DNA of 64,000 nt, taken from NCBI GenBank assembly GCA_047967505.1, contig CM106538.1. The stretch is one strand, 5' to 3'. The notes below the pieces were generated by a model. That model was not told the DNA's origin. It saw only the letters and a list, made by a program, of their open reading frames with translations, and did no database searches. A program made the translations under genes and the position numbers. This stretch comes from Dipteris shenzhenensis. Its lineage: Eukaryota. Shown here piece after piece: positions 27,905-55,680 of the stretch (the stretch's first letter is position 1; the number at the start of each line of letters is the position of its first letter).

Positions 27905-28160
27905 TAAGATTACCCCACAAGAACACTTTCTGTTCTTGAAAACATGAAAGCGGTTAGCATCTCTGACGAGGCTATACTTTGGATATAAGCGCTTTAGCTG
28001 AATGGCAGTCTCTGCAGACCTGAAGATTATTTACAACATCTATGGGTACCCATTGGTGTATTAATCAGATAGCCAACTTGTCACTGTGCCCACATAACTC
28101 AAATTCCTCTAGATTATCATATATGTCCTGGGATAGCCAATGCAACTCTGGCTTCTTCCC
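27905..28160 (-). pseudogene. Frameshifted/decayed DYW deaminase domain belonging to the PPR gene
   Basis: Alternative frames read KPELHWLSQDIYDNLEEFELCGHSDKLAI / LINTPMGT / IDVVK / NLQVCRDCHSAKALISKV* / LVRDANRFHVFKNRKCSCG. HSD at 28080-28088, CRDC at 28005-28016, CSCG at 27914-27925. Confidence 0.9.
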
Positions 28161-30477: not shown

Positions 30478-30747
30478 ACCACTGGGAAGCGCTCAGTACT
30501 TAATTTAACTGCGTTTGCAGAATTGTATGGGTGTCGCTTTATATGGTACAGTGGGGGAGGCTGGGAATGGACCAAAAACTAAAGCATTGGCACATGGCCC
30601 TGTGAGACGACAGACAGACAACATGCGAAATCAAATGGAATAAAGAAACAAGAAAACAAGAACTCCGTAGTGTATTAGATGTACAAATTTTAATGCAAAG
30701 GGAGAACTCATCCATGGAAGAGTAGGAAGTCATGCCATACATGATAG

Positions 30748-34130: not shown

Positions 34131-34159
34131 TTAGTGTACATGTAGCTATATCGTGTGCA

Positions 34160-34196
<37 letters not shown>

Positions 34197-34500
34197 TCTG
34201 CTATCATGATGCAGTTTTTGGTAGAGAACAATGTAGCGTCTAGAACAGATTGTCAAGACTAGGCAACACCCATCTCTAAAACAAGGAATGGTGGCATGTG
34301 GTGCGGATCGGTTGGCAATGTAGGAGCTCCATGAATCACGTGAAGGCATCTTCAAGAGCAGCTAGAACTAAGAACTGAAAGCTTAGGGAGCTACATGGCA
34401 ATGAGGATCACAAGTGAGCAGTAGCTCCTCCAATAGAGGTGAAAACCAACAATGGCAATGCTCAAAATGTGGATGCAAGTTGATCAGTTCAAAAATCCAA

Positions 34501-34520
34501 GCTTTGATATCATGTCAACA
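34501..34520 (-). other. tRNA-iMet primer-binding-site-like sequence marking an LTR-element junction that truncates the transposase
   Basis: Minus strand TGTTGACA-TGATATCAAAGC versus the canonical ...CA-TGGTATCAGAGC (2 mismatches). Confidence 0.5.
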
Positions 34521-37400
34521 AGTAAGGTGAGAATAAGGGAGAACTCCAAACATTTGCATCACGTTGTGCGAAGTCCAAACAAGTGCAACGTGGAAACTCC
34601 GCAATTGTCACAGCATAACTAACCTTCTTAGCTATTGAGCCTGGAGTCCGCACGTGAAACACATGTGACACATTTGGAACAATGATATCCTCTTTCAAAA
34701 CCTTGCCACTTTCTATCATTGCCTTCGCAATCCTTTCTTTGAATTCCTTAATTTAGATCTCCATCTCACAATCTTTCCATCACGATGACATGGACGTGCA
34801 TGGCTTACTGTGTTTCCTTGTTGCACTAGATCACCTTGCCCAACATCCTCAAGGACAAAGCTTGCTTTTATCAATTCAGCTCTCTCTTCAATACTTAGAG
34901 AGGTTCCCTCAGCAACCTTCCACACACCAGGTGAATCCCCTAGCACACCTTGAATAGATCGATCCACGTTCCAAGTATGGGTCACCGTTGTATTGCAAAA
35001 CCAGATAAATTGCTCTGTGATTCCATTTGGATGTTGTCTTCTACCTTTGAAGCATGGTGCAGGCACTCCATGATCACCCCTCTACCCTGTGCATTAATCA
35101 ACACCCCACACCTCCTTCACCTATCTTTCATGTACCCAAAGCATGTGACAACACTGTGTGGATCAGTTCTCCGTATTGCCCAATTGGCAACATGCACATC
35201 TGTCTCTTTACAAATTGGTTGACCTAAATGGCTTGCTATATTTGGCTTTCCTCTTTTACCAAGCACTCTATTTGTTGTAACTGTGATGTACTCAGGACAA
35301 TGACTGTCTAGTTCATGCTCCTCAGTAGGTAATCTTGAACCCCTCTTTCTTCTTGTTGTCAAGGGTTCAGTCATGGGTCTCTTCAACTCTGGAGAGTTCA
35401 ATCCATCCTCTTCTAGCACAACCTCTGTCAAATCCACAAGCTTATTTTGTTGTGCTCTACTTGAATTACCCTCAGAAACTCATCTTCGCAAAACCTCCAA
35501 ATCTGGTCTAGTCCCAGAGTGCTTTCCTAAAATGTATGCATGATAATGGGCACTTTGTAAAGCACTCATTGCAAGATCTGAAACTGAAGCTTCATATAGA
35601 GACACATATTTTTGCAACCCATGACCCGCTCTAATGCTAGAGTGCTTGTTCTCAAATAGATTTATTATAGGTACAGTCAATTCACCTTCCTTCACATGGG
35701 TAGGAGACCAAAATTTTCTAATCCTATTTTTCCATTCATTTGCTGCAGCATCTGTGTTTGCGTTTCTCCAACTTCGGCATAATGATTTGTGTTCCTCTTG
35801 AAACTGGGAGGTAATGCAGCATCTTGTGTGATCAACCATATTCATTTCCCAATGGAAAATACAAGTTCTCTCTTTTCCCTCCATTCTATTTTTCAGCCCT
35901 CCATTGTACACAGTCCTTACAGCCAACCAATTTGAACTAGCACTATCTACCATAAACCCTCGAAAGTCTAGTTTCTCAAATCCATTTTGCAACATTTGCT
36001 CATTTAACATGTGCCAAAATTGTACCTGTGCAACTGTGTTCTATACTTTAAACTCACATGTAGCAATGGTCAATAGCTCATGTATATAGGGGTCATATAT
36101 ATGAGCAGCCATAGTGGCCCACCCTTTAACACGTTGTATGTGATCAAAATGCACCCACATTTGACCAAGATTTCCCCCAGGCCTCATTTTATTAACAAGA
36201 TCTACTCCAAAGGTAGGGCCTATAGAGGACATTTTAAAAATATGAGGTTGACTCTTATCTTGTAGTTGGCTAGGAAACAATATACTTTGCAGGAAAGGAT
36301 AAGTACATCTCTTCTTCAAGGCAAGGATTGCATCCAAGCCTCCATCATCAATGGAAGAATTCTTTCTTGCACACTCAATAAATCTTTGAAGGCACCTCCG
36401 ATGGCACAAAGGGGTTATTGTTTCTAGCATTTCATTAAGCCTTGTCTCAGTTAATTCTTCATGCTTAGTGCCTTCATCAACAAGCAACATATCCATCAAT
36501 ATGTCTCTTGTAACTGTCATCTCAATGTTCTTATAGGATGCATTTGGAGACACCTTAGCACGCATCAAAACCATGTCCTCTACCTGTTGTCTTTTTTGCC
36601 TTGAGATCCCTTGTTCCACAGGGTGGTTGTGCATACCCATATGAATTGCGCATCTGGTAACTCTTTCACGGTCATGCGGGAGACAATAGTACATGATTGC
36701 AACATATGGTTCTACGCACTCTGGTGACTCACCACAATGCTTTCAAACTAATGTTCCTATCTCCTTGTTGAGTGGCCCTAGAGAGGGTGTCTTCTTTAGC
36801 TTGCCTTTCCACTGTGTTTCATTTACTAAACCAGTGCGCTCATTGTAAGCACAATCCACATTATAACACCTCAAATAACCTCCACATCTACAAAATCTTA
36901 CAACACCTCTAAAAAACTCTTGTGTGCTTGTCGTATACTCTGTCCAAATATGCCCATCACACCTCTGATCCATTCCTTTCATAGGAGAGCCTGAACTTAT
37001 GGGTGGTAGCTCAAACAAAACATATCCATCATATCTCACTGGAAGTTCTTGCACGACATGCATCGATTACGCACTTGAAAAGGGGACATGCAAAGAGCTA
37101 GACAATGGAAGCCTTTGCAAAATTGTAAGTACACTCACCTCTTCAATAGAAGTTGATGATGCACTTGACACTATTTTTCTTACGACCACCATGAAATGTT
37201 GATGGGTTCAGCCATCCAATCTGAACCCTTTCTCTCCCCCTTCCAAATCCACCAAAGGTTGACAAATAGTAACATCTTCAATTTCCATCTGTTGATGTAC
37301 TTGAATCTCTTAATCTCCAATGGCAAAATGGTCCTTAATGTCTATTAATGCAACCTCACAAGACTCAGTATCATATCTAATAGCAAGTGTTTGAGATTGC
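34510..37400 (-). mobile_element. Mutator-like (MULE-related) DDE transposase pseudogene, copy 1, with N-terminal WRKY/GCM1-like Zn region and C-terminal SWIM
   Basis: Colinear ORF pieces: DGHIW...CRCGGYLRCYNVDC...AIHMGMHNHP (Zn region); WVHFDHIQRVKGWAT (D1); FRGFMVDSASSNWLAVR (D2); CIFHW (CxxH); NLFENKH (E); YAVTIAEFPRCTCLDF (SWIM, cut before its final C-x-H). Several stops and frameshifts. Confidence 0.8.
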
Positions 37401-39309
37401 AGATATTTCAGTAGAATAGTTTGAGATGCCATTCTATTGTCTTAGATAGGAGAACATAAGTGCAAAGCCAGTAGAAGGTGACTAGAAGGGGAGGCCTTGG
37501 AGAAGGTGTTAAGAAATGGAGAACTTTGAGAATTGCAAAGCTACTAGTAGAAGGTGACGAGAAGTGGAGAAAGGTGACGAGAATTGCAAAGGTGGATACG
37601 AATTTATTCTGTGAACTTGTACATGACGCGCTATATTTATTAGTAGGAGAACAGTCCAAAAAAATGGACCAGTAGATGGTGCACATTGCCAGATACGTAT
37701 TAATTGTGTGAATCTCTGCCCATCACTTTGGACGTAGCCCACCACTCCTACAACTCATGCAATGAGCTACCAACTGATGATGTCGATATTGAAGCTCGAG
37801 AGTGTGAACAACTAACTTCATGTTAACTTCTATTATCATGCCAACTTCTAACTTCATTTTTATGATCTTGTAACTATCCATCAACAAAACTATGATCTTC
37901 TAACTTCACGCTAACTTCTAACCTCCTTCTAACTATCATGATAATGATCTAGCTTTCCATCAAGCTAACTTCTAACTTCATGCTAATAATTATGCCTAAC
38001 CGAGTGTTTTGCCTGACTGGAAGAACTAACCGAGTGCTACCGATAATCTAAAGCGGCTGCCATCTTCATGTAAAACTGACACTCCATCTGTCACTTTTCA
38101 TGAAAATCTGATGCTCCTAACTCAATGAAAACTGACGTATTCATGCTGAAAACTGTTAGTTCCATCTTTGCTCTCAAGCATCTTCGCTCTTCTCCCCTTC
38201 CCCCTCCTTTTTCCTCTTGCCATCGATCAAGCCAAGGAGTTAAATCTATGGTGCAGGTCCGCCTATTTACAAGCCAAGGAGTTTCGATGAAGTTAAATCT
38301 GTGGTGTAGGTCCGTGATAAACGATCATCTCTCTCAGCTCAATCTTTAGCTTAGTGATCATCTGCAAATCCTTGGCAAGATTACTTCCTCTCAAGTCTAC
38401 ACTTCCTCCGTCTTCTCCTTATGCTTGTTCATCGAGTGCTTTTAACTATTGTGGCGAAGCTTCTCTTCTCATTTGCTTGTTTATGTTACTTTCTCTCAGT
38501 CTTTGCTTTCATGCTCACTATCCATTTCTTCTATCGTAGCCGTGGCATCACCTCGTTGATACTTTTTGTACTGGAACGATCTCAAAAGAAGAGAACAGTT
38601 GGAAAGAATAGTTGGAAAACACAGAAGGCTCATGTGCTTTTGCTACCCACGCCGCTTTTCTCTGCTCTACCACATTTGCATGCATGCACTTTTCTTCCTT
38701 CTTTCTTCGCTCTCGACTTGAGGCTCGGCTTTGTAATCAAACATCCAATCCACCTGCATTTTCTTCACCTCATCCTTCCTCGGTGAGCACCTCCCGACTC
38801 TCTTTTCCCTCCTCTCTTCTCACTTCACTCCACACGCTCGAGCGCACACACAGCTTCCCATGTGCACCCTTAGCATTGCCTTCCTCACCTCGTTGGCCCT
38901 TGCATCTATCTCCTTGTAGCTTCTCACTCTCAACATCGCATTCCCTTCTTTGGCGGTGCCTTCCAGCTTCACCGCCTGTCTGCTTACGATTACCATCCTC
39001 CAGCTCTATCTAGCACTGACTCCCTCCTATAGTCTGCCGTCGTGGTGTCTATCATAGCCGGCCCCCTCGACATGGCGAAAGTAGAGTCTGAGACAACTTG
39101 CAGTTCTCTACTCCAGGAGTCGCAGGTGTGAGTTTTCTGTCCTTTCCAACTGTTCTCTTCTTCTGAGATTGTTCCAGTACAAAAAGTCACGGTCGAGCTG
39201 GGCATGTTCTCTTTGCTATCACCTCGTTGGCTAGTCAATGAATATGTTCTGTTTGTGGGTTTTAAACGAATGTGGTCTCAAAGTTTTCGGGCAGATGTTG
39301 CTGTCCTTT

Positions 39310-40400
39310 CATGGCTTGAGCACCGCGTATTAATACGCGGTGCCAAAGTGTATTATATAAGCTCTTCTCTACAAAGTGCCAAAGTGCCTTCTCTACAAGC
39401 TCGTCACTGGGTAATGCAAAGAGCGGAAGATTTTCTTTGGGAAGATTTTCAATGTTGCTGGAATTTGCAGCGGGTGTGTCATGAACCTGTTCTCTATCCT
39501 CTAGGCCCGGAATGAGATCAATGTGTTCTCTATCCTCTAGGCCCGGAATGAGATCATTGATCAGAAGTAATCCTTGCTCATGTTGAAACATTTCTTAACT
39601 GGAAAGACACTGTTCAAAAGTCCAAGTGGACAAATGGTCGCCTTTGCCCCCAAGCTATGGGTTACTCAACGAGAGTGGACATACAATGCCTGCAACTAAA
39701 AGCAGGTGCATAGATTTTTGCTAATCGTGCTTCTCTCTCCATCACACCTACACACTCTCCATGGAACCGACATATATCTTTGCCTTTTCATGGCTTGAGC
39801 ATCGCGTATTAATACGAGGTGCCAAACTCTCGTATCAAAGCAAGCTGAAATGACTTCCTTGCATGTGAGGAAGTAGTTTATGCTTGAATTATCACTTCTT
39901 CTTAGTTTGAATTATCGCTTCCTCTTTAATTAATTCACTCTTTGAATTGCCACTTCCTCACAAATCACAAAGCTTTTTGATCAAATCTTTGTCTCCAACT
40001 CAACTAGAGCCGTGGAGATAAAATCAAGTACCATGATAACAAGTTTGGAATGAAAACCTTTCAGGCAAGCTCTAAACGCATTTTTTTCATTGGTAGAGCA
40101 CGCATATTGATACGTGGTTGAAAACCTTTTAATCTTGGATTTTTCCAAATGTTCTACCATTTTCTCATGCTACAAAGATTTTATAGTTTGCCTTTTATCA
40201 ATTCTCCATTGAGGTGATTTGTTGGCAAGAATGATGTGTTTTAGGCAATGATTTATTGGCCAGAACATAGCGTATTAATGCACGGTTCCAAACATTATGA
40301 AAATTCCAGATTTGTACTTGAGGAAGGCAAGATTTTAGATGTCATTAAACAAGGCAATTTGCAAGTTTTAGCTCAGTGTATTAATATGCTATGCAAAAGG
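39310..40400. repeat. Dispersed array of a palindromic ~24-bp motif (GCACCGCGTATTAATACGCGGTGC)
   Basis: Perfect 24-bp palindrome at 39320-39343. Degenerate copies with shared flanks (catggcttga...caaa) at ~39799-39822, ~40097-40120, ~40265-40288 and ~40371-40394. Confidence 0.85.
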
Positions 40401-40626
40401 TTGTTCCTCATGCAAATTTAGGAGGGCATATTAGTGTTGTGCTCGTGCTTACTCTTGGAGCCATTTGTTGGGGCTTGGGCAAAAAGGTTAAATTTGGCTT
40501 GCCTTGATATAGCAAATGCTTGAAAAATAACAGATTGATTGTTAGCAAATGCTTGAAAAATAACAGATTGATTGTTTTTTCATCATGGATTGCTTTTTGT
40601 TATTGGCGGATTTCAGTCTTGGAATC

Positions 40627-43600
40627 ATGGTCAAGAAGAGGGTTTTGAAACTTTGTGAAAACAAAAAGCCTCCTCTTGCCACTATTGCAAGGGCACAAAG
40701 AAGGAAAAGAGAGTGGCCCCCAAGTGAGGGATCTGTCCATGACAATGTAGGGAATGAAAGAGAGGTTCTTGAAGTGGATAGTGTTGCAATTCAAGGTATG
40801 GATGAAGAAATTGAGCAGTCACTTCCAAAAGAGGATGAAGAGATAGATGTCGATCTTGCAGAAATGGAGGTGGAGATGGCAAGAGGAGCTGATGTCATTG
40901 GCAGATGTAGACTCCTTGGCTTTGATGAGTGTCCACGAATACCATTGTGTAGGATGATTCCATATGCTCGTGTACATGGTCTGAGGTCTGATGTGGCAAC
41001 ACTTAAAAGTGCTTTTCAGTATGAAGGTTACTTACCTGAAAAAGGGGCTTTCATTGTTTCTCTTTGCACTTCAAATGGGGAGGAAACAAAAGTCACAAAT
41101 GAAGTCTGAGAAACATGGACACCATTGTGGAGGGAAGTTGAAGGTGAATTTGAAAAGGAGCTTACAAGTAAGAAAGAGTGGCAGTTTATGTGTAAGAAGA
41201 TGTTTTATGTATGGGAGGGCAATCATCGTACCATTGCATGGATGCAATTGATTTCTGAGGCCTACATGGAGACTAAGTCAAGACACATTAGGGTGATGTG
41301 CATAGTGATAGACCCTCACCATACTTTAGAGATTGCATTGCTTGCTGGATTGCAAAGAATGAATTTGTAAGTACATTAAAATATTTTATTTGATGCCATG
41401 CACAATTTGATATGGAAACTACTAACTAGAATGCTATTTGAACCTTGTCTATTTGTGCAGATTGAATGAGCATGCTATCATTAAACCTAGTGTACGAGAC
41501 ACTCTTGTTAACACAAACAATATATGTGAGTGTGATGCCACCTTGTTTCTTAGTACTTTGACTAGTGAACAATGTGTAGTCATTGAAAAAGCAAGGACAA
41601 GGGATTCAAAAGGGAAAAAGCAATGGTACCCTTTGACAAGAGGATATCTTGCACGTTTGGTGTTTTAGGTGTGCTCATTTTTATTGTATTCACATTTCTC
41701 ATTGTATTCATTCTTTTCATATAGCAAGATTAGCATTTTTAATTGTATCCATTCACTATTTCTCAAGGGTCTTGATTTTGTAGGTTGAATACACTAGAGA
41801 CCTTACGCAAGCAATAGAACATGTGGGAAAGACAGTTTCTGAAGAGAGGAGGGCAGAGGCTGAGCGTGAAGAGCATACAAGAATTCACAAAAAGTACTCG
41901 GATAAAATGGTAATGGTATGTGACCATCTTTTTCTTGAATGCTATTCATGGCTTTTAATGTGAAATATCTTATCTTTTTGCTTATGCTGAATCATCCTAG
42001 GTGCTCAACATCCTTGATCCTAAACTTGGTGATGTGTGGAAGAAAAAGGTTTTTTCATTGCGCTTTGAAAGTCATGATTCTATTGTTACCTTATCCAAGC
42101 TAAAGTATCTTGCTAATGCGGAGTTGAGAAATGAGAAGAGACTCATGTTGCTATCACTTCTTGATGCCAACAAGAGGATGACAGAGATGTATTTTATGCC
42201 TGCAGGAGATAATGAGTATAGAGGGTAAGTGCTTCATGCCTATCCTATATTTTCCCAGGATGGTATGTGCTTAGTTGGATTTCTTTCTTTGATGTGCTAG
42301 CTTGATTTCTTTCCAAGTAGGTGGTTAACAACGGATACATTCCTTGACAAAGTGGAGATCCAATCATCAATGGCTTTGGAGGATTTATGTGCACTTTGTG
42401 CAATGACCCAACCACTTGATTTGCCGAAAGATTATACACTACAACAATATATAGAGGACATTAAGTTGGAGGGACGAAAGCATATGTTTGCTTCCTTGAG
42501 ATCCAGGGATGGCAAGGCTGAGCTCAAGAGTGGGAGAAGAGGAGATGGAGGAGCACAGAGGAAGGCAAAGCTTGATCAAGCAGCGCAGCGTGTGGTTTTT
42601 AGGTATAGTTTTGAGTTATTTTGTTATGTTGCATTATCTTTGTGAGCACTTTGACACAACATTAAATTGTATGTCATACAATCTTTATGGTATCTCTCCC
42701 ACTTGGTGCAAGAAGGAAAATTGAAAGATCTCCCTAGGCAGTGCAAAGGGTGATTTAGGGTTACCTTGTAGTATCTTTCTAAGAGCTCTGACACAACATT
42801 AAACTGTATGTCTTTAAGGTATCTCTCCCACTTGGAGCAAGAAGGAAAATTGAATGATTTGCCTAGACAGTGCAAAGGGTGGTTGGAGATTGGGAGCCCA
42901 GCAAGTTGCATGTACCCAGGAACCATGCATGCATTGTCTCAATGGGAACTTGCACACTGCCCTTGGTCGATTGACTTCATCGATGGTCAAGTTTTTACAA
43001 GAGAGAGAGATCTCTTCACACAATATTCTACAAGCAAGAAAAGTGAAGATAAGGCCACAAGCAAGATAGACAAGGGGAGTCAAAAGGCTACAACTTCTGT
43101 GCCACCACCGAAGGATGTTCCACCCTAGGATGAAGAAGGTGTTTATTAAATCATTTTGATAAATTTGTTCAGTTGTTATGGAAAGTATTTTTGGTTGCAA
43201 ATTGACCGACTCGATTTACTTGCATAGTTGTTGTAGAGATTCCAGCTCGTGTTGATAAAGACCGTCACGAAAGCATTGGCCAAGACCAAGGTATAATCAT
43301 TTCTCCTTTCATGAAACAATTGCTCTATATACAATAACTCATTGTTATATCATTTTCATTACTGCAAGAAAAGGTTATATTGTTATATTTGTGATATTGT
43401 ATATTACAGGAAGTAGGATGGTTGTGAAAGAGATGATCACTTATGTCTGTCATCGTCCATCACCTATGGATCCCACTGTGTGTCGAGGAGACACATTGCT
43501 TTGCAATTGTTCCATTGGAGATTATATTGCCATGGGCTTGGACTTTGTTGATGGGAAGAAGAATGGTGTTTACACGCAAGCTCATGAATTTTTCTTAGCA

Positions 43601-44420
43601 GTGGCTCAAAAAGAAATAGACTATAGGAGATTTGGCAAGAAGGTGAAGTGGGCTGCAAACTTTATGTTGCTTGACTTCCGACTGGTTTTGAGATTTGTGG
43701 AGATGTTGGCCTCCCGTCATGGAACAAACTCATAGAGGATCACTTGAAGTATGGCATAGCTGTAGCTACAGCGATGTTGGATGATGATGGGTGGTTGGTA
43801 CTCATCTGTCCATTGGTAGGTAAGCTTCTATTTACATCCATTTACTTCCTTCTTTTGCTTTACTTCCATTTAAGACTTCGAGCATGGATGCTCTTTGACA
43901 ATATGGATATTTTGTTTGATCTGTATATGAAGGACCATGTATTACATGGATGGAACGATATGTTCGTGCACAAGGATTGGAGGTGGACCGTCGTGTATTT
44001 GTGCTAGAAAAGCCTCCATATGGTCACATAAATGTACATGAAGGAGAAGATATGTTGGTGAGTTGGGTTCATGAAGTTTCTTCTTATCATTGTATGGTGT
44101 GAGAGATAAAATGTCAATGACATATGTTCCTTCATCTTGCAGATGCAATCCTTCATGCTTGTGTTTGTGAGGCATGTGGGCCATAAACCACCAACATTCC
44201 ATGTGGAGAGTAAACCATTTCGGTGCTCGGCCTCGTTGCAGAAGTCCATCAATTCATGCATCAGGCTGCACTTACAAAGGTGGAGTTGTTTCATGCCTTA
44301 GCTGGTGGTAGAAACCTTGCACGCATGGAGTAGGTGCACAAGAAGGTGGCAAAATCCTAACATGTGTAGAGTGTATGGAGAATGGTAGCAATGTATGGGA
44401 GATGAAAAGAGATCCCTGTC
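40627..44420 (+). pseudogene. Multi-exon gene: ParB/Sulfiredoxin-like N-terminal domain, helical middle region, and C-terminal N6A/N4C (beta-class) DNA methyltransferase-like domain; copy 1
   Basis: ParB-like IPLCRMIP..RVHGL...LKSAF..EGY..G.FIV...MFYVWEGNHRTIAW (WEGNHR 41212-41229). GT-AG introns at 41367-41460, 41669-41783, 41916-42000, 42225-42320, 43820-43932 and 44058-44142 keep the frame. C-terminus: FMLLDF/PTG (43661-43686, across a frameshift), AMLDDDGWLVLI, FMLVFVR, QKS, CTYKGGVV, AGG, CMENGSNVWEMKRDP. Confidence 0.75.
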
Positions 44421-45349
44421 TCAATTTTGGTAATGTTTTGCACATACAATAACAAGGATTTGTGGGTTTGGTATATCAATACCTTTAGTCTTTACAAATG
44501 TTTGAAAGTAAGTAGAGCCAAACAAGTGTGGAGTAGATGAAAGAGACATCGATTTTCATATACATGGAAATAATGAAGATCTTTTGGTTTGGACTAGCTT
44601 CAGTACCTTTGGTATTTCACTCTACTATGCATGAACTTTTTTTCCATTAAAATACTGGATGCATTATGAAATATGCTCCACTACATAAAGCAAGTACGTG
44701 AAAGTGGACTGATGGGATTTGATTGTTTGAGAACTAATTTGGCATCACTTCCTGCCTGGCTTATTTCTTTGCATGGCTTCCTTGCTGTTACTAAATGCTT
44801 TCTCTAATGGCTTACCCCATTTCCATAAATTTAAGGTGCCATGATTAAGGAGACTGTGAAACTCTTCTATTCTCAGATTATTCATGAAAAATGTGTGTGG
44901 CTTTGAAGTACAATACAGTGTCATGCAAAAGCCAAAATAAAAGTTTATTTGTATGCTCATATGATGTTAGGATAGACGGATAAAAGGTTAGGAAAATTGA
45001 AGCTTCTTATGCTCCTTTTATTTGTTGTAAATAAGAAATAGATACATATATAGATAGATTTTGATCATCCATGTGAGAGGTAATACATATGTAGACAGAT
45101 TTCATTCATCCATGTGAGAGGTAATGGATCTTTAGAGGTGCCTATAATGAGAAATAGGATGCTTAGAGCCTAAGAAATGAGTAGCAACTTTCCCTACACC
45201 ACACTTCTGGCCCTTTCATGTTTTCAGGTTGGTTACAATATTCTTTCCCCAATACAATAAATGAATGATTTGGATGGTCTGCTCGCTTTTTTATGCTCGG
45301 TGTAATAGCTCTGCTCGGTTTTTCTTGCTCGCTTTTTGGTAACCCTCTC

Positions 45350-46993
45350 AAGGATGTTCCTGATTGAACCTTTCACCTTCTTGGTGATGGTCCTGGAATA
45401 CTTGTAATGCTAGTTGATGGCTTCCATGTGCGGGTTACATCATTTTCACAAAACCAAATCATTTGGGAGCGCACTCCAATTGGTGTTTGAATCCTCCCAA
45501 AGAATGATAGTGCAACAACTCCATGTCGATTTTCATGATCCTTTATATTGACGAGCTTGTTACATTTTCCTCCTTGTCCAAGATAGCAACGGACTTGGCT
45601 TGTTACAGGAACTCTTCACAATGCCCAATTTGCATCATGCACTTCATATTCTTGCACACTCTTGGAATCATCATTCTCAAAACTCTCTGTTGCAAATTTA
45701 GTACTAGATTTGGGAGACATGGAGTACACAGGGCGATGACTATCATCCTCACATATATCTGAAGGCATTGACTTTGGCCTTTTCCTTCGCACAGTCTTGT
45801 CATCTCCATCATTAAAACATACTTCAGATACAACACCCATTTCCTTTGCAACATTACTTGTTAGGTCAACAACTATTTTGGCACTAATGTCAATCTGAGA
45901 TTTTGAAAATCTTTTTTTTAAGGTCTCTAGACTCGGCCCACTTCCAATGAACTGGCCCTTCAAAAAAGATGTGTATCTAGAGCTTTGTAGAATTGCATTT
46001 GAGAGGTCACTAATAGAGGCATTGTAGAGACCAACATATTTGACATGGTTCAATCCAAGCTTCCAACTACCATGAATGGACTCTGCTATATTTGTTCAAG
46101 ATATCAAGTACTTCTCATTATCTAGCATACTCTACAAACCAAGAATTGCATAGATATTATAATGGCAAAATTGCATTATTAACATGATTTTAAAAAATTC
46201 AAGAGAAATACAAAACCAACCTCTATAATGTAGTGGCCCCAATGGGAAATCCTAGCATGCCACCATGCAAACCAAGTTTCAAGCCGTGGCAAGTCTGAAT
46301 CACTTGCATGGCCTACATTCCACCATGCCCTTAGGCTTCTCATTTCGACTTCTGCAGCTTGCTCTATAGAGGCATCCTTCCAGCATCTACATCAGATTTT
46401 AGATTCCTCTTGGCTGTGCCAACTTTTATACAAGCCTTTGCATGGGAATGAAGACTTTGCTCCCAATGGAAAAGGCAAGACCGCTCTTTCCCTTCCATTA
46501 TATTGTCAAGGCCACCATTGAAAGCACGAGTAAGATTCACACCATCTCTACATTCTGGCATGTAGAGTAACATTTCACAGTAACATCTCTCCAAGCAAAC
46601 TAGTGGACGACCACAATGTATACATGATAACGAGCCATATGATTCAATTGACACATTTGCTGGGGCCACTCTAATTAATCTCCCATTCCATTATGTCTCA
46701 TTCTCTATCCCAATTATTTTTTTATAACCACAAGTTGCATTTATACAGCGGAGGTGACCTCCACATTCCTTTCTACAAACCACACTAGGAAATACTATAT
46801 TTGTTGTAATAGGATCACTCCAAATATGACCATCAAATTTTGACTCCGTACCTTTTGTGCGATGTTTCACTGAAGTAGCTGGTAACTCAAAGAAAACATC
46901 ACCATCATAAGTAGAAGGCAACTCATCCACAGTGACGTGCTTTTCAACCTTCTCATAGGCCTCACGCAATCTATTCTTTATAGGTAGTTGCAT
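45350..46993 (-). mobile_element. Same-family MULE-like transposase pseudogene, copy 2 (internally deleted, SWIM missing)
   Basis: ELPSTYDGDVFFELP...DGHIW...CGGHLRCINATC...NET; MEGKERSCLFHWEQ; WFAWWHARISHWG; intron 46132-46220; TNIAESIH; KYVGLYNASISDL; NWAL; IWFCEN; KVQSGTSL. All except the WFAWW block and the intron are colinear with copy 1. Confidence 0.85.
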
Positions 46994-47919
46994 AATAATG
47001 TCAATGACACTATGTTGTTCGTCATTCTCAATGTTCTTGCCTCATCATTTTTGTTGCAAACAGAGTAGAAATCTTTTTTGTTTTCGTGCAATAGAGTCTT
47101 TTGAAGTTCATTGTCATCAAGCTTGAATATTTCTCCCTTCATGGTGAAATATCACCAAACTGCGCATCAAGGTGAAACATTTTGTATCCATTGTCATGGA
47201 CTTCATATTGCAGCTCCATTGTCAAATCAGACCCATTATCACTGAAGTGCTGATGGATAGATATGGACCCAAGTGTGAATGGAAAATGGCTAGCAAGCAC
47301 CATCTCTAACAACACTCCTCTACCTACGAAAGTACGAACAAACATATGCAAAGATCTATCCTCATTCTGAATTGTGACAAATTCCATTAGAATGGAATGG
47401 TTGAGCTCTGTAACTCAATGAGATGAAGTCCAAAGGGTGAGATCAAGAGCAGAGTATTCATTTCAAGAACTCATTTGAAACAAGATTCTGCCTCAAGAAA
47501 AGTGGCTCACAAATGCTGCCCATTTTTTATACTCACAACTTTATAAGATAGGTCTTGTGAAAGTCGGCACAAGTGTGACAATGGTACTGAACCATGATGT
47601 AAATTTTAGCCATCGTTTGTTAACAACAATACTATAATACCATGGACTCTTAGACCTTTTAATCCTCAATCTTTCTTTGACATGTATGGGAGTTATTGCA
47701 AGCCATTCTCATTAGCAATGACAATTCATAATTGCTACATATTCATTCCGACAATTTGATATAAGGATTCTTAAACTACATAAATCGATTTAGGTATTTT
47801 TAAGTTGATAGATAGATATGAATTATAATTGTGGTGAACAAGAAATGGTTGGTCAACACATCTCTAACCTTTTGAATATAAATTATGATGTTAAAAATAT
47901 GCCCAAATACTATTTTATC

Positions 47920-48768
47920 GATGAAAGGGGTCTATTGGCCTCTATCTTTCATCAATTATTAATGAAAGGTAGAGGCCAATAGACCCCTTTCGTCAACGAA
48001 AGGGGTCTATTGGCCTCTATATTTAATTAATGGTTCATGAAAGGGGTCTACTGGCCTGTATCTTCCATTAACATTTAATAGAAATTATTTTCTCCAAAAG
48101 GGGTCTATTGGCCTCTATCATTAATTAACTATTAATCAAAAAGATATTTCATTGTATTGTCGATAAAAGGGGTCTATTGGGCTCTATTTTTTATAATTTT
48201 CAAAAACAATTATGAAAAATTATAAACCTCACATAGTTAAAGTAATGATGTTTAATTAAATGATCACTTGTCATTGCTGCATTCTCATTAGCAATCAAAT
48301 TCGTATGATAATCATTATAAGTCATGGTTCCTATTAACATCATGGTTTGGTAGCATTTCCATAGCAGTATGTCGTCCTGTCATGGTGAATAAAATAAACG
48401 CATTGATTGTAATGATTTAAAATAATAAAGACGACAAAATACATGAATTTTTGTGTGGTAAGGAGTGCTAGCTACTGATAAAGGGGCAAGGCTAAGTACT
48501 TGGGTCGGTCAAGGACACGCGGTAGTCCCTTGCTAGCAAAGGTGTTCTTTATCATGGATGGGGGATGCCAATTTCTACAAATATCAATCCTAGTATTTGA
48601 GCTTTCCAAATGTGAAAATTAAAGGCCAGTACATCCCTTTCGTCGACGAAAGGGGTCTATTGGCCTTTAATTTTCTTAAGGGCTCTCATGAAAATCAAAG
48701 GCCAATAGACCCCTTTCGTCAACCTTTCATCGATGAAAGGGGTCTTTTGGCCTTTAATTTTCACATTT
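47920..48768. repeat. Array of ~10 copies of GAAAGGGGTCTATTGGCCT in alternating orientations, forming long palindromes
   Basis: 50-bp palindrome at 47970-48019 (24-bp arms, 2-nt centre). Further copies at ~47923, 48039, 48097 and 48165. A second cluster at 48608-48768 includes a palindrome centred on GTCGAC (48642-48647). Confidence 0.92.
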
Positions 48769-49371
48769 TTCCTAAGGCCTCCTCGTCCCCTTGCCTCCCC
48801 CTCCTTTCCTTCTTTCCCTGCAGAGCGACTGCTGCCTTGGAGTTGGAGTTCGTCCCCTTGCCTCCCCTGCCTTGCCTTCTTTCCCTGCACAGCAACTGCT
48901 ACCTTGGAGTTGGAGTTGAGGTATCTTTCTACAGCAACACGATTCCAAGCGGCGACTGCCTCTACTTCTCGTTTGAGTGCCTCCTCTTGCAGGTGATATT
49001 ACTTTTCAGTTTTAATGGAGTCTTTTCTTCTAGCAAACGCTTCCATCCCCCTTCCCCTGTGGGACTATTCGTCTTCCCCCTTGATGGAATTTATGTAGGG
49101 TTCTTTCATTTTAGTGCTGAGTAGTCACGAATTTTTGCATTTCCGCTTGATTCCTGTGCACGAATCAAATTTTCGAGTCCTCGACTCTTTTATACAGTTG
49201 TAGTCTCATAGAAATTCGATTCTTCTGATCGACCTTTTGGATGCTCAAAGCATAGGTTTATATTGTGAATGTTCGTGTGCTTGTGTATTAGTTTTGACCT
49301 GCTGACACTAAAACGTGGATCACAGTAAAATGTGGATAGTGAATCCGTTTGTGTTGGTTGCTTCTCTGATT

Positions 49372-49951
49372 TCAATTGAAGTCTAGCCGAAATGCAAAAC
49401 TAACAACAAAGTTGTCTCTCTGGAGAACTTCAACGATTTCATCCCATAAATTTTCCTTTCTACCTGTCCTCCCAAATTTTGCATCGATGCCACTCCGTAT
49501 TCTTATAAGCTTCAATGTTTTTGGCCGCGTCCAATTCTTGGAGTGCTTCTTGTGCTCCCGCTCCCTCTTGCGTTTGTTGTCCCTTCTGCCTTCACTTTCT
49601 ATTCTAGTCCCACAACTCTTATTGTCGTACAATCTTGGTTCCGAAGAAGCTAGTCCAGGTGCAAAGAATGAAGGCATGGAAGGATTGGAAATTGGAGGAG
49701 CATAGGAAGTGAAGCAGGAAGTGAACTCTTGCATTTTTGCTCCATTTTTGTGGGAGGGAGAATCTCATTTCTAAGTTTGTTCGAATTCTCCGTGGACGAA
49801 CTCTTAGGGAGTTCAGAACGGTAAGCGAAGTCATCCATGTCATGTCTGGAGAGGGGGGGCGCTTGCAGGCCAAGGGAAGGGAAGCAGGGCAAGGGAGGTA
49901 CAGAGGGAAGGGGCAAGGAATGGAGAGGGGAAATCCCTCAGGGGAATACAT
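49372..49951 (-). pseudogene. Trihelix (GT-1-like Myb/SANT) DNA-binding domain gene fragment
   Basis: KKHSKNWTRPKTLKLIRIRSGIDAKFGRTGRKENLWDEIVEVLQR matches the trihelix pattern W...ET..LI..R......F......LW..I...L. The third helix (QC..KW) is absent and the upstream part is frameshifted. Confidence 0.7.
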
Positions 49952-51904
49952 GACAGGGAGAAGGAAGAAGGGGAAAATCGTGGGAGGAGAAGCTGTGATG
50001 TGCTAATCTAGATCCACACCACTGACCTATCGGAATGCAAAACTAATAGCATTCCCATTTTCCACACATAAACCATGAGCTCGATTCTCCATCTTTTGCC
50101 ATCGTGCGCATGTGTATTAGTTTTGACCTACCGACACTAAAACGTGGATCAGAGTAAAATGTGGAACTTGGAACTTGGAAGCAATCGCCTACACTGGTGC
50201 TTTGGCGTGCAATCGCCTGTACCTCAGAAGGGCAGCAAGGTGCCTTTGGTGGAGAGAATGCACCCTCAAACTATAAGCTCTCGTCCATAATACTACCTTC
50301 AAATGAGAGATTTGAAAACAGAGAATCCTTTTGCTCTTAATGTGACGCTTTCCTAGGCATAAGATAGGAGCTCCAGCATTATGATCAGCATTTGCTCTGA
50401 GATCTTGAAACTTCTCTCGGGTGGGAGAATTGTATAAGTGTATCTACTCTACTATCGTTGCATCCGTCGAGGCAATAAGAATTCCGATGGGTTTCTAAAA
50501 CATGGCCTTAGTTGAGGCAAGGATGCCCTAACTCAATTGTCTTGGCATTGAGTATCACAGCAGCTGAGAGCATGGCAACAAGTCACCTATAGATGTGTTG
50601 TCTCCTCTCCCTAGAATGATTAAATGAATTGCTTGAGTGCATTATCAGTATACACAAACATTCCAGGAGCTGGATTGAGATATGTTATCCAATCTTTAAA
50701 TGCATTTTAAAGAGAGAATTTGATAAATTACATGCATCTCATAAATGACGAAGAGCAATTCAAGTGAAACATATAAGTCGGAGCTACAAAGTGAAGCTGT
50801 AGGGAGTAGAAGATCCAAGAGGAAGATGAACGTGCGAGCATTGAGCAGATACTTGCTCAGTCAAGGTGGAGGTGTAGGGAGGAAGGCCAAGGCTTTTGTG
50901 CTGGGGTGCTGCGCCATCTTCGCCATCCTCGTGCTTGCTTCATCGCCAACACAACAACACACAAGCTTTATAAATACACACACTTTTTGCACAGTCATTG
51001 TAGTTGGTTTCCTTCTAGACACGTGGCTCGCTACAGTAACTAGCAACAGTCTTTGAAATTCTCTCTACAAAAAAATAAAATTGTCCTATGGGATACCCAC
51101 CTGTCAAGAATTGGTAACCTACAAGCACTAGAGAGGCAGCACATTGTACCATATTCATTCACAAGTAGAAGGGTCCCAATAGCTCAATTTTTTGGAAAAT
51201 GGTGTAAAAGTAGGAGCTTCTTATCACTATTAAAAAGCACTCCCCGAGAGCCCGAGCTAGGTTCTTCAGGTAAGAACAAAGATGATCGTAGATGTTTTTT
51301 AGTTTTTCAAGCCTACATGCTATTGGATTAAAATTACACACGTGGCTGTAAAGAATGGTCCTTCAATAATCGAATTTCCTTTCAGTCGTGCATGAAATCC
51401 AGTGATTGAATGAGCAAGTGGTTGCAAGCTAAATCAGTTAATTCTATGTGTGACCTCGAAAGTTGATATATTACAAAGCAGAGACATATACTTTGTAAAA
51501 GAGTAAGAGGAGGGGATCGATTCATTGCTTCTAACTAGATATTGTATGCTTTTGTGGTTAATAACTTGTTCTTGTATGCTTTTGTTGTCCAGCTAGTCTC
51601 CTCTCAAGCCCCATCATCTCGTCAAATGCAGCTTCAATTAGCAGCATCACAATCAAGCTTCAGGTATTTTCTATTTTGAAGACTCTTGGGCTTTCTTTGT
51701 ATGCTATTGAATTAATGCCGAGACTTAATTGACCTTGTAAGTCTATTCTATGCCATGTGAGGACTTCTTTTCCCTTGATTTTTTTCAATGCATTTTTGTC
51801 ACATTGGTAGGATGATAAAACTAAAAACTTCTTAGAGGAGGGGGAGAGGTGGAAGAGGAGAACGAGGAGGCAGGAGAGGTGGAAGGACAAGTAGCAAGAA
51901 AAGT

Positions 51905-53600
51905 TTGGAAGTGGAATCTACACCAAGTTTAGAGATTCAAAAAGAGGTTGAAGTTGGAGTTGAAGAGGATAAGGAGATGGAAGACTTTGAAGACACTACA
52001 ATAATTGTGGAGGAATCTTCTAAGAAGAGAAAGAAAGAAGATAAACAACTAGATGAGGAGTTTGAGCAAGAGTTTCCTACTACACTTGATATTGGCTAGG
52101 GGAAGGATGTTATTGAATCTCTTGCAATCAATCCTAAAAAGATTGCTCCCTTGATCCCATTATGTTGTTGTGTTGTAAACACAAGAGTGAGAGGCCTACA
52201 AACTGATATGGATAGCCTAAAGCAAGCTCTAGAGGCTGAAAAATATATTCAACAGAAGGGAATGTTTATTTTATCTACAACACTTCCAGATGGTGTTTGA
52301 CAAGAGGTGACAGATAAACCTGAACAATCATGGGATTCTTGTTGGAGGGATGTAAATGCAGAGTTTGAGGCACAGATTGTTGATGATGCTGATTGGTCAT
52401 TTTTATCTCAAAAGATGTTTTTTGTGTGGGAGGGGAATCACTGTACTATTGCATGGATGTCTCTAATTGAAGAGAAATTCAAGACATCAAAGGCATGACA
52501 TATTCAAGTTTTAGCAAGTTTTATTACTCCAGAGAAAGAAATAGAAATGAAGCTAATAGCTACTCTTCAAAGGTTCAATCTGTAAGTGCGAGTTAGAAGA
52601 GGTTTCTTGCTTATATGTGTTACCTTTTTTCGAGCTTTTAAGGATTTTGCAAACAATTCTTAATATGTTTGAAGCTATATATTTTTTATTTTTCAGCCTC
52701 AATGAAGTAGCAATTATTAAAACAAATCTCAAGGATTATTTGTACAACACGAAGACAATGTGTTCGTGTGACGAGAATGAGTACTTATTACTTTTTTCTT
52801 AGGAAGAAAAAAAGACACTTGAAAACCATAGGGCAAATGAAAGCAATAAAGGATCAAGTACTTGGTATCCTTTGACATCTCTGATGCTAGGGAGAATGGT
52901 ATTTGCAGTAAGTTTCATACCATTTATCATGGATGTCTTTCGAATTAGAACTAACTAATTCATTGTACTCATTCATTTCTTTGGAATATATTTTATCCAC
53001 TATACAAGCAAGATTATGAGGCAAATCTAAAGGAACTTCAACCAAGTTTGAGTGTTGCCGATATGGAGAAAGCACTTAAAAGTATTCGAAAGGATGTGAA
53101 TCAAGTATGGTCGAAAAATGATCAAGATATGGTTTATTTAATGATTCTTAACATAAAGTTGATTTTTTAAAGCGTTTCAGTGTTTTTTGAGATTGAGAAA
53201 GAACTCTAATATTAAAAAAGGATGTGAATATGATGTTTGTTTAGAAAATGATCAAGGTATGGGATATGCATGTATTCTATGATTAGAAAATACAGTTGAG
53301 TGTGACGAGTGCATGTATTGTTTATATGTAGATTCTGTCTATTATCAAACCAACAAATGGTGAAAATTGGTTTAATATCTTGTTGAGCCTCCCATTTGAT
53401 GATAGATCATCCATTGTCACATTGGAAAAGTTGTATAACATCTCCATTACAAAAGTCTCAAAGGAGACAACTAGCAACCCTCAGAATCTTAAGGTCAAAT
53501 TCAAATTTGAGAACAAGTTATGGAATGCCAAAAGCTTATAGAGAATTCATAAAGTGGATGGCGAAAGAGGCATGGAATTATTTGATGTTCTTTCATAGAT
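51905..53600 (+). pseudogene. ParB/Sulfiredoxin-like multi-exon gene, copy 2 (3' part replaced by Copia sequence)
   Basis: GKDVI...IPLCCCVVNTRVRGL..LKQAL...KGMFIL...QKMFFVWEGNHCTIAW (52427-52444); LQRFNL|gtaagt; LNEVAIIK...WYPLT..LGRMVFA|gtaagt; ILSII.P..G..W...SIVTLEKL. The first intron positions match copy 1. Confidence 0.85.
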
Positions 53601-53626
53601 CGACGGTTGGTATAGATCTAGATCAG

Positions 53627-55680
53627 AGTAGACTAGATCGCCATAGAGGGGATGCTTTGAATTTCCCCAAGTTACCAATCTAAGCCATGCCCGAAATTCT
53701 TGACTAGTACCTACTCGGAGTCAGTCCATACACTCACATACGGTTTCACATCATTACATTACTTGAAACCTTATGTTCATCAGTTCAGTGGAGCAGACTT
53801 CAGAGAGTAAAGAGGCATTGCAGATTGTCTTAGTGGGTAGATAGCACTTGATTTCACACACACATGCCACCATTGTAAAGCCTATTTGGCTATCTCACGG
53901 CATCGTGCACATCATTTTAGCCTTGTAAAGCCTCTTGGCTATTCCCGGCATCATTGCCACAAGCCTTGTAATACAAATCAGATTTTATTGTAGTTCTATC
54001 TTCACCGACGGTTGAGAGATTTCACTTGGCACAGTTAGTGTATTTGCAGTTGATTCATACAAAGATTTTCTCGACACTTTTGAGTACATTTTTTGCACCA
54101 TGTGTACAACTAGCAACCTCAATCTGGAGGCATCTGCTAAGTTAGACAACTCCAATTACGTTACATGGATATACCGCATGGAGACCATTCTTGTACTTCA
54201 GGACAAATGGGAGTATGTCAATGGGTCTACACCTAGACCATTGGATGATCGAGCCACAAGTAGCTCTACTCCATTTGTTGTCACAGCACTAGCAACAGGA
54301 TCTACAACTACACAAATAGTTTTCGCACCAGTAGCAGATCCTGCCATTGCCCGAGCTCAAGCAAAATGGGATAAGAAAAATAAGTATGCCTATCATCTGA
54401 TCAAGTAGAATGTGCAAGATGTCATGCTAGGACAACTCAACACATTCAAGACATCAAAAGAAGCATGGGATATGTTTGCAGCTCTCTACGAGTCCAAGAA
54501 CACATCCAGGATTCTCACCCTATAAAACCAGATCAACCAGAGTTTTCGCAATAGCAGTGAAACCGGTCATGCTTATGTACTCTGCATCAAAGACTACAAC
54601 AATCAACTTACATAGCAGGAGAGACTATGAACCCCACAGAAATGGTTCAAGTCATTCTGAATGGACTAGGAGAGAAATACGAGAATCTAGTCTAGAGTAT
54701 TGCCATCTAACGACAAATTCTGACACCGAAAGAACTTCAATCAATCCTACTTGGTGAAGAACTCAAGACTCAGGCCATCCAAGCACAAAAAGGTCATTCT
54801 AATGATCAGGCATTCATAGCTTCAGACAGAAGCAGAGGTAGAGGCAGAGGTAGATAATTCCAAAAAAGTGGTCATCATCAACAACAAAATCAGAATCAGC
54901 ATCAGCATCATCCTCAGCAATATCGGAATCAGCAAAGAGGAAATCATTCCAACCGAGGAAGATTTCAAGGACAAGGGAATGCATCCACCAATGTGTCAAA
55001 CATTCACTGCAACTACTGTCACAAGTTTGGACACTATGAAAGAGATTGCTGCAAGAAGCAGTACAACCAAGGCGGTCAAGGGAATTTTGAGGTAGAGGAA
55101 ATCATCGTGGTGGACATTCTAGTCACAGTCATTTTGCAAATGAACATGGAAATATGTTTCTTGCAAGCGAGGAAATGCATTAGATTGATACAGTGTACCC
55201 AGACAGTGTACCCAGACACTAATTTCAATCCCAAAGAGGATTATAGCTATCAAGTCGACCAAGTGGAACAAGATCCTTGGTACATCAACAACGGTGCATC
55301 ATCTCACATGACAAATCATTAGGAATGGTTCACAAAAATGAAGCCATTAGAAGGACAGAAAAATGTCATCTACACAGCAGACAATACACCAAATCCAGTT
55401 CAAGGGACAGGCGTTATCCCTATGAACAATTTCATTGGTACGAAAGGATTGGTGAAAGATGTGCTCTATGTTTTGAAGCTTAGCAAGAACCTTTTGTCAC
55501 AGTAGGTCAAATGACAAAACACAATTACAGAGTCATCTTCAATGGTGATGAATGCACTATCAGAGATAAATCCACCAAAAGATGTCAGCTAGTAGCAAAA
55601 GGTGTCAAGGAAGGACCCTTATACATAATGCTAGCTACAATACCAAATAAGCATGCCATGTCAACTCAACCACAATAGAT
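53627..55680 (+). mobile_element. Ty1/Copia 5' leader, gag and protease remnant
   Basis: KLDNSNYVTWIYRMETILVLQDKWEYV (gag N-terminus), SKEAWD, zinc knuckle CNYCHKFGHYERDC, protease WYINNGASSHMT, VKDVLYV..L.KNLLS. Confidence 0.9.

Follow-up and report, generated by a model that had tools for sequence, protein, structure and literature searches.

The 64,000-nucleotide stretch of Dipteris shenzhenensis DNA analysed here (assembly GCA_047967505.1, contig CM106538.1; hereafter the window) is land-plant DNA, and its best named protein matches are from Adiantum nelumboides and A. capillus-veneris. It contains two adjacent units, copy A and copy B, that share one layout: a transposase gene on the minus strand, a spacer of 3-4.5 kb bearing palindromes, and a spliced gene on the plus strand, see Table 1. 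The product of the plus-strand gene, the accessory protein, is formed by a ParB-like N-terminal part, a long helical middle and a methyltransferase-like C-terminal part. Both copies are pseudogenes, dead and functionless in this window.

Table 1. Coordinates of the features of copies A and B in the window.
Feature	Position	Strand	Basis or remark
Copy A, whole unit	34555-44332		transposase (-), spacer, spliced plus-strand gene
Copy A, transposase pseudogene	37432->34555	-	tblastn to ~1050-aa relatives P0010/P0011
Copy A, spacer	37433-40584	.	3152 bp between divergent genes
Copy A, ParB-like/methyltransferase-like pseudogene	40585-44216	+	10 exons; profile of relatives
Exons 1-5	40585-41366, 41461-41668, 41784-41916, 42001-42224, 42321-42602	+	
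Exons 6-10	42819-43138, 43228-43290, 43410-43819, 43933-44057, 44143-44216	+	
Copy A, ParB/sulfiredoxin-like domain	40843-41367	+	WEGNHR at 41212-41229
Copy A, methyltransferase-like domain	43410-44216	+	three exons; shortened; C-domain profile 9-220 of 335
Transposase tail	44217-44332	+	last 38 codons and stop; tblastn
Copy B, whole unit	45313-53575		transposase (-), spacer, plus-strand gene remnant
Copy B, transposase pseudogene	~47041->45313	-	tblastn and profile
Matched pieces	47026-46694, 46690-46526, 46528-46421, 46391-46203, 46095-45619	-	
Copy B, spacer arrays	47923-48752	.	within ~4.5 kb spacer
Copy B, ParB-like gene remnant	51965-53575	+	profile positions 76-403 only

About 1 kb separates the two copies, which have the same orientation. 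We compared the six-frame pieces of positions 34000-44500 with those of 44501-54500 and obtained 12 matches between the two sets at E<=1e-3 and 33-65% identity; the proteins of A and B are 33-59% identical. At the DNA level the likeness is confined to a single 60-nt stretch (D9) with 78% identity, and the rest cannot be aligned. All pieces of A and B of at least 50 amino acids were also searched with tblastn against the whole window, where cross-matches are confined to A and B and no further full copy is found. A preliminary description of this DNA had reported two adjacent, diverged copies of one layout, conserved in their protein motifs, not obviously alignable as DNA by eye, and each with a palindromic spacer. 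All of this is borne out: both genes of either copy have been located, and the spacers, 3152 bp long in A and about 4.5 kb in B, contain their motifs in numbers far beyond chance.

The transposase gene of copy A is intronless and starts with an ATG at 37432. By tblastn, positions 37387-34555 align to residues 14-1004 of the relatives P0010 and P0011 with 41-51% identity. The reading frame is interrupted by six in-frame stops (first base at 37312, 37210, 37069, 36745, 36043 and 35482) and two frame changes, about 25-30 conserved residues are lost internally (alignment A5), and the homology breaks off at 34555, inside a SWIM zinc finger. For copy B, five pieces were matched. Profile positions 267-512 are absent there, i.e. 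about 245 residues of the core including the region of the first catalytic aspartate, and the SWIM part was not found in searches of the window.

The SWIM finger is recognised by PF04434 in the relative P0011 (residues 984-1020, E=6.8e-5, 22.8 bits against a cut-off of 19.6), and the window aligns to that region up to 34555. Such fingers are common in Mutator, MULE (Mutator-like element) and IS256 transposases, and are not exclusive to them. The core of these transposases is characterised by a D...D...E triad in which a C-x-x-H separates the second D from the E; candidate motifs in alignment A5, recognised by eye only, are FDH, (F)MAD, C-x-F-H-W and N-L-x-E-x-K-H. The look-alike clusters of the transposase are MULE/SWIM families (scores 0.87-0.90). 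In NCBIfam, IS256 alone comes up repeatedly: two of nine members match it, the best with E=1.1e-4 and 16.5 bits against a cut-off of 150. Neither MULE (PF10551) nor Transposase_mut (PF00872) of Pfam matches the window pieces, six relatives or eight metagenome relatives, and a PDB sequence search with the transposase profile A5 gave no match at E<=10. KDZ membership was considered and rejected, as no KDZ transposase or CxC model of Pfam matches window pieces or relatives at E<=1-10. We therefore describe the protein as a DDE-type transposase of about 1050 residues with a C-terminal SWIM finger, and attach the label Mutator/IS256-like tentatively. The earlier term "MULE-like" is supported by the SWIM finger, the look-alike clusters and the sub-threshold IS256 matches (2/9), but not by the Pfam MULE model, which matches 0 of 14 relatives.

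The plus-strand gene of copy A covers positions 34-801 of an 859-position profile of relatives in 12 pieces. Its nine introns correspond to gaps in the protein-to-DNA alignment, at which the donor and acceptor dinucleotides were checked. A contig from a public sequencing run, X1, is 95-99% like copy A and spliced; its joints bridge eight of the nine introns, and GT..AG is flagged at seven of the nine joints listed. The run contains 18% of the sampled words, and its type (RNA) is a guess. Around the border of intron 5 and exon 6 there is a tandem duplication of about 137 bp (42623-42884, 81-91% alike), and the contig splices over its first unit. Two in-frame stops interrupt copy A, a TGA at 41107, where the contig lacks nine letters, and a TAG at 41666. 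At about 43675, inside the D-F-P-T-G motif described below, copy A is one base shorter than the contig, and beyond 44216 another 255 letters follow in the contig that do not resemble the window. Because the contig differs at 41107 and 43675 and runs past 44216, a less damaged sister of copy A exists in the X1 sample and is probably transcribed, the RNA kind of the run being guessed. The gene had been described as a spliced gene bearing a WEGNHR motif in both copies; this applies to copy A, with its nine introns, while copy B reads WEGNHC.

The homology of copy A to its relatives ends at 44216, and about 60 profile positions are absent, including the S-adenosylmethionine (SAM)-binding motif. 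Directly fused to the broken gene is the tail of a transposase: residues 1014-1045 of P0010 and 1020-1051 of P0011 match 44217-44312 with 66% identity (tblastn). This tail lies on the strand opposite that of the copy A transposase body and 9.7 kb away from it, and its residues resume about 12 residues beyond the point where the minus-strand gene breaks off. Copy A is thus rearranged at 44216/44217, because the contig diverges from the window at 44216 and the transposase tail sits there on the plus strand. A simple inversion, the most straightforward idea, was rejected: it predicts the 3' part of the methylase gene immediately to the left of 34555 on the minus strand, where it is missing, and neither the C-domain profile, the full profile nor an 18-letter probe from the continuation of the contig finds that part anywhere in the window. 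Possible explanations are an inversion whose left junction has been lost, or a deletion between two head-to-head elements.

In copy B the N-terminal domain encoded by the remnant of the plus-strand gene is interrupted by two in-frame stops, with WEGNHC at 52427-52444. No methyltransferase part of this copy is detected in the window by profile search. Directly after the truncated gene, at 54016-55322 (+), there is a Copia-type gag-like frame with a CCHC knuckle, and the insertion of this element may have cut copy B short.

To characterise the accessory protein we used predicted structures. For the N-terminal domain of copy A, in which X was put at the stop, AlphaFold2 gave a model with a predicted local distance difference test score (pLDDT) of 92.2. 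In a fold search with this model every chain at ranks 1-33 is of the ParB, Noc, KorB, PadC or sulfiredoxin kind, for instance 6sdk_A with a probability of 0.85 and 6ky4 with a template modelling (TM) score of 0.55 by target. Sequence methods are silent: ParBc (PF02195) and the other Pfam models match neither this domain nor its relatives, and PDB sequence searches with profiles A2 and A4 gave no match at E<=10. The motif W-(E/D)-G-N-H-R, conserved in the family consensus, lies between a strand (121-125) and a helix (127-140) of the model. Members of the ParB/sulfiredoxin superfamily carry a phosphate-binding motif of the G-x-x-R or G-C-H-R type at a strand-to-helix turn. According to the model, a ParB/sulfiredoxin-like nature of the N-terminal domain is plausible.

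The full-length relatives P0008 (832 residues), P0006 (866) and P0166 from Riccia (1207) indicate a protein of about 830-1200 residues. The AlphaFold2 model of P0008, made from an 84-row alignment, has a pLDDT of 76.3. Its top match in the fold search is the methyltransferase CcrM (6pbd_A, E=1.4e-9), followed by M.BceJIV, M1.HpyAVI, M.PvuII, the rotifer N4CMT, MboIIA and RsrI, and 99 PDB matches reach E<=0.001. Among the look-alike clusters of the accessory protein, 17 of 30 carry PF01555. The PF01555 model itself remains just under its cut-off of 26.7 bits in three Riccia relatives (26.2, 24.8 and 23.7 bits), matches P0023 with E=0.084 and does not match the window pieces; no relative examined scores above the gathering threshold. 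Searches of Pfam, NCBIfam (four relatives, chance-level rows only) and PDB sequences do not name the accessory protein.

The equivalent of catalytic motif IV is D-[LFV]-P-[F/T...]-G, and in copy A it reads D-F-P-T-G at about 43673-43688. Across the 29 family sequences the aspartate is present in 28 and the proline in all, the glycine is conserved next to them, and the fourth position is F in 16, T in 10 and P, S or I in one each. D-x-P-x-G precedes L-E-x-G-x-G-T by about 170 residues, which is the motif order of the beta class (IV before I), and the SAM loop G-x-G-T is kept in six of the ten sequences that reach that region. On the predicted structure, the assignment of the C-terminal domain to the fold of beta-class N6-adenine/N4-cytosine DNA methyltransferases is right. 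Judged from the family alignment, the changed DPPY motif leaves the predicted methyltransferase activity and its target base open. A third, tiny methyltransferase-like remnant is present elsewhere in the window, at 19751-19864 (+), SPWDVLIEDHFHYGVALYESTLLD, where positions 98-134 of the C-domain profile match with E=2.9e-6.

The two spacers differ in their repeats. In copy A the palindrome core CGCGTATTAATACGCG occurs four times, at 39324, 39803, 40101 and 40269 (span 39324-40284), where 0.01 occurrences are expected, and the plus-strand gene begins 0.3-1.3 kb downstream of these sites. The copy B spacer contains ten occurrences of the 18-mer GAAAGGGGTCTATTGGCC (0.02 expected), in two clusters and on both strands, and some of these pair up into palindromes, about 42 bp long, with GTCAAC or GTCGAC in the middle. 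It also contains inverted pairs with 48-nt arms that are 88% complementary (I1) and with 31-nt arms that are 90% complementary. The distance of the copy B arrays to the start of the transposase is 0.9-1.7 kb, and that to the plus-strand gene exceeds 3 kb. Three of the four longest short-range palindromes of the 64-kb window are located in these spacers (I1, I2, I3; also I5). The copy A spacer further shows a perfect 33-bp tandem duplication (40510-40575) and an inverted-repeat pair at 38561-38611/39137-39187, whose 51-nt arms are 92% complementary and separated by 525 nt. The segment 38561-39187 resembles a small insertion like a miniature inverted-repeat transposable element (MITE); no clear target duplication is seen at it.

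The accessory protein has 545 relatives at E<=1e-3 in a representative library. Ten of them were looked up: four are from A. nelumboides, two from A. capillus-veneris and four from the liverwort Riccia sorocarpa. The named relatives of the transposase come from the same two genera, Adiantum and Riccia. In a tree of the ParB-like domain (68 rows), copy A falls in a 19-row clade with Adiantum proteins (support 100/99) and copy B in a separate clade of five rows (98/94). A quick tree of the transposase (21 rows) pairs A with L003 (66% identity, SH-like approximate likelihood ratio test, SH-aLRT, 90) and groups B with P0013 and L001 (SH-aLRT 96). The best Adiantum relatives of A are P0049 (57% identity) and P0002 (59%), and B is 47% identical to P0077.

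As both genes place A and B in different clades, the copies are separate insertions and not a recent local duplication; the phylogeny argues for independent insertions from two old lineages of one multi-copy land-plant family. The great age of the family and the absence of a recent duplication had been proposed before, and the 545 relatives and the two trees agree with this. A duplication could also be ancient, so that A and B would be the halves of a tandem duplication of a single insertion that decayed in place, as their closeness and common orientation might suggest. We regard this as very improbable. For each copy there are sequences elsewhere that are closer to it than its neighbour, the trees of both the ParB-like domain and the transposase keep them apart, the X1 contig is 95-99% like A and differs at A's lesions, and long open stretches with 33-59% identity imply a divergence under selection before insertion. 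The two lineages may have become neighbours by chance nesting in repeat-rich DNA or by a preference for insertion near relatives.

The plus-strand gene had also been called a domesticated cargo. Domestication finds no support: the gene occurs in many copies and is decayed here, which is what one expects of genes carried by transposons. In some database gene models, P0047 and P0073, pieces of the family are joined to a host domain, namely to an FCP1/NIF phosphatase (A. capillus-veneris) or to an ABC transporter; such fusions are probably annotation read-through across transposon insertions.

Accessory genes of this type have been described in other eukaryotes. A close counterpart is Sola1-1_Ec32 of Ectocarpus, which encodes a protein of 1104 residues with a ParB-like and a 4mC/6mA (N4-methylcytosine/N6-methyladenine) methylase part (Genome Biol 2025, PMC12477816). 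As in our copies, this gene lies on the strand opposite to the transposase in a large DNA transposon, and its product is proposed to bind and modify its own element. The Ectocarpus element differs by a Sola1 transposase and a brown-algal host, whereas the elements described here have a SWIM-finger, Mutator/IS256-like transposase and a land-plant host. The two proteins were compared by description only, and the replacement of DPPY is noted in the fern and liverwort family only.

Giant Plavaka transposons of red algae carry related functions on two proteins, PAG2 (PF01555 and SET) and PAG3 (ParB-like and 2-oxoglutarate oxygenase), as reported in the Bostrychia paper (bioRxiv 10.1101/2025.02.11.637652). 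Homologues of PAG2 and PAG3 are located on Mutator elements of Chondrus crispus, and the accessory genes move between transposon superfamilies (same source). The likeness to our copies consists of methylase and ParB-like genes on DNA transposons and of tandem inverted-repeat arrays beside the ParB-like gene; unlike the algal pair, the land-plant gene encodes a single protein without SET or oxygenase. Fusions of ParB-N with N6_N4 methylases are described from phages and plasmids, and ParB-linked Dam-type methylases from chlorophytes (Iyer et al. 2015, PMC4738411). The former share with our family a ParB-type module coupled to an amino-methyltransferase on mobile DNA, but they have no sequence relative of it in the phage and plasmid records searched, and ours are plant genes with introns. 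The chlorophyte family belongs to another methylase clade, of the Dam/M.EcoKI type, and land plants are said to have few N6A methylases (PMC4738411).

Accessory genes that serve the element are also known from plants. The Arabidopsis VANDAL protein VANC acts on the methylation state of its own element (bioRxiv 10.1101/2025.02.11.637652). Common to the Mutator elements and our copies is a transposase accompanied by a second gene, transcribed divergently or separately, that serves the element; the fold of the accessory protein is unrelated, Pfam MULE is unmatched, and the typical target duplication and long terminal repeats were not found here. In maize, MuDR consists of a transposase gene plus a second gene, mudrB, serving the element. 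Host enzymes with the beta-class N6/N4 fold exist in eukaryotes as well, namely the rotifer N4CMT (8s9m) and MpDN4MT1a/b of Marchantia, N4-cytosine methyltransferases with 4mC activity (bioRxiv 10.1101/2021.02.12.428880), and through Riccia our family overlaps with the liverwort lineage. These are host genes with demonstrated 4mC activity, set beside the family by description or fold only.

No report of a ParB-like methylase associated with a transposon in ferns or bryophytes was found in a literature search that did not extend to subscription journals, to Repbase Reports or to supplements of the two algal papers. The novelty implied by the preliminary description is weakened, as the same type of accessory gene is published for Sola1, and similar proteins for transposons of red and green algae. 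The family belongs to a kind of transposon accessory system that was recognised recently; it is a member from land plants, and its catalytic motif is unusual. It does not form a category of its own, because ParB-like plus methylase accessory genes have been published for brown, red and green algal transposons.

Taken together, A and B are two dead copies, inserted independently, from two diverged lineages of an old land-plant DNA-transposon family, and we consider it somewhat more probable than not that this transposon combined its transposase with a divergent ParB-like/methylase-like gene for a self-directed accessory protein. The claim of a single element is made because the layout is found in both copies here and has a precedent in algae; the genes are divergent in 2/2 copies, and the palindrome arrays of the spacers are lineage-specific. 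Both genes would travel together as one element. The accessory protein would recognise the palindromes of its own element through the ParB-like part, much as ParB does at parS, and would then place 6mA or 4mC on element DNA in the vicinity, or at the very least bind that DNA. Such an activity might favour expression or transposition, or oppose silencing by the host.

A number of observations weigh against this proposal, and we take them together with the alternatives they bear on. The first ones concern the nature of the proteins. Pfam gave no match for ten window pieces and the read-through transposase. The fold match of the N-terminal domain is weak, with E=0.11 at best and none of the 110 matches at E<=0.001, so of the ParB-methyltransferase reading in the preliminary description the methylase part is confirmed by predicted fold (CcrM), but the ParB part only weakly. 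Collections of bacterial, archaeal, viral, phage and plasmid sequences yielded no relative: with alignment A2, in searches that reach near relatives only, 60 pattern matches in bacterial and archaeal contigs (one genome per species) and 48 in IMG/VR viral contigs gave no confirmed relative, and tblastn of P0166 gave no match in 50,697 phage and 72,556 plasmid records.

The second concerns catalysis. The canonical (D/N/S)PP(Y/F/W) is present in 0 of the 29 family sequences and none has P-P. The methyltransferase-like domain might thus be catalytically dead, and the accessory protein a DNA-binding or bridging factor that leaves no mark, e.g. in the assembly of the transposition complex or in transcription control. 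This would fit the replacement of DPPY in every sequence, the loss of the aromatic fourth position to Thr, Pro, Ser or Ile in 13/29, the PF01555 cut-off that is never reached, and DIRS1, whose transposon-borne methylase domain is judged inactive (PMC4738411). Yet the preserved Asp (28/29), Pro (29/29) and Gly, with Phe in the fourth position of 16/29, resemble selection on a working pocket, the G-x-G-T loop is kept in 6/10 of the sequences reaching it and the whole methyltransferase fold is, by prediction, retained. A dead enzyme is on balance rather unlikely.

The third concerns the palindromes, whose sequences in A and B are unrelated and which could be unrelated insertions. They may be foldback or MITE-like insertions, or sites of the transposase or a promoter, instead of loading sites for a ParB-like protein; the position of the B arrays, near the transposase start and far from the plus-strand gene, agrees with that, and so do I1 of copy B and I2 of copy A, long inverted pairs that resemble small inserted elements. 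On the other hand, both lineages have retained palindrome arrays in the same spacer, among them the longest short-range palindromes of the window, the A sites lie shortly upstream of the ParB-like gene, and inverted-repeat arrays accompany the ParB-like gene in the red-algal elements (bioRxiv 10.1101/2025.02.11.637652). This alternative falls short of an even chance but is a substantial one.

The last concerns linkage. At metagenome loci with transposase relatives the second gene was found in 0 of 33, among which only two are independent with 10-kb flanks, L016 (=L017, L020) and L029, both with decayed transposase fragments. Among the listed gene models of A. nelumboides, none of ten ParB-methylase models shares a contig with any of five transposase models, and the nearest listed pair in Riccia is 25 locus tags apart. 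Elements of the MULE type have long terminal inverted repeats and a target duplication of 9-11 bp; here no terminal inverted repeats or target duplications were found, and the comparison of words in the flanks of A and B gave chance-level results only. The linkage of transposase and ParB-methylase expected beyond the window is accordingly not found in the 33 metagenome loci.

These results would be explained if the two genes are not one mobile unit and the ParB-methylase gene is a separate repeat or host family, brought next to the transposase by chance or by a shared insertion preference. We find this improbable. Order, orientation and spacer design are identical in two copies that belong to different clades of both genes, both gene families co-occur in ferns and a liverwort, the negative metagenome loci are short contigs or decayed fragments, and the Sola1 element is a published precedent for the arrangement (PMC12477816).

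A more far-reaching version of the single-element interpretation would have, in a transposon lineage common to ferns and liverworts, a ParB-type, nucleotide-switched clamp that is fused to an amino-methyltransferase, loads at parS-like palindromes, spreads and writes 6mA or 4mC on the element only as a self-addressed epigenetic mark, with the family as the source or a close cousin of the bacterial-type N4-cytosine methyltransferases on which liverwort sperm depend; we think it quite improbable as a whole. Should the two genes indeed travel together, transposons equipped with a DNA-binding methyltransferase of their own would be present in land plants, a class so far described from algae only. 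They would then provide a testable route to marks other than 5-methylcytosine (6mA, 4mC) in ferns and bryophytes, and a natural case in which an element uses palindromic sites to direct a modifying enzyme to itself. With the conserved D-x-P-(F/T)-G pocket the family has a variant amino-methyltransferase active site that merits assays, and the Riccia members raise the question of kinship with the N4-cytosine methyltransferases needed for Marchantia sperm.

Outside the pair, the window contains an intact open frame of 791 residues for a pentatricopeptide repeat (PPR)-E protein of the plant organellar RNA-editing type, upstream of copy A at 28117-30492 (-), and a Copia-type RVT_2 fragment at 63373-63864 (-), E=1.6e-26.

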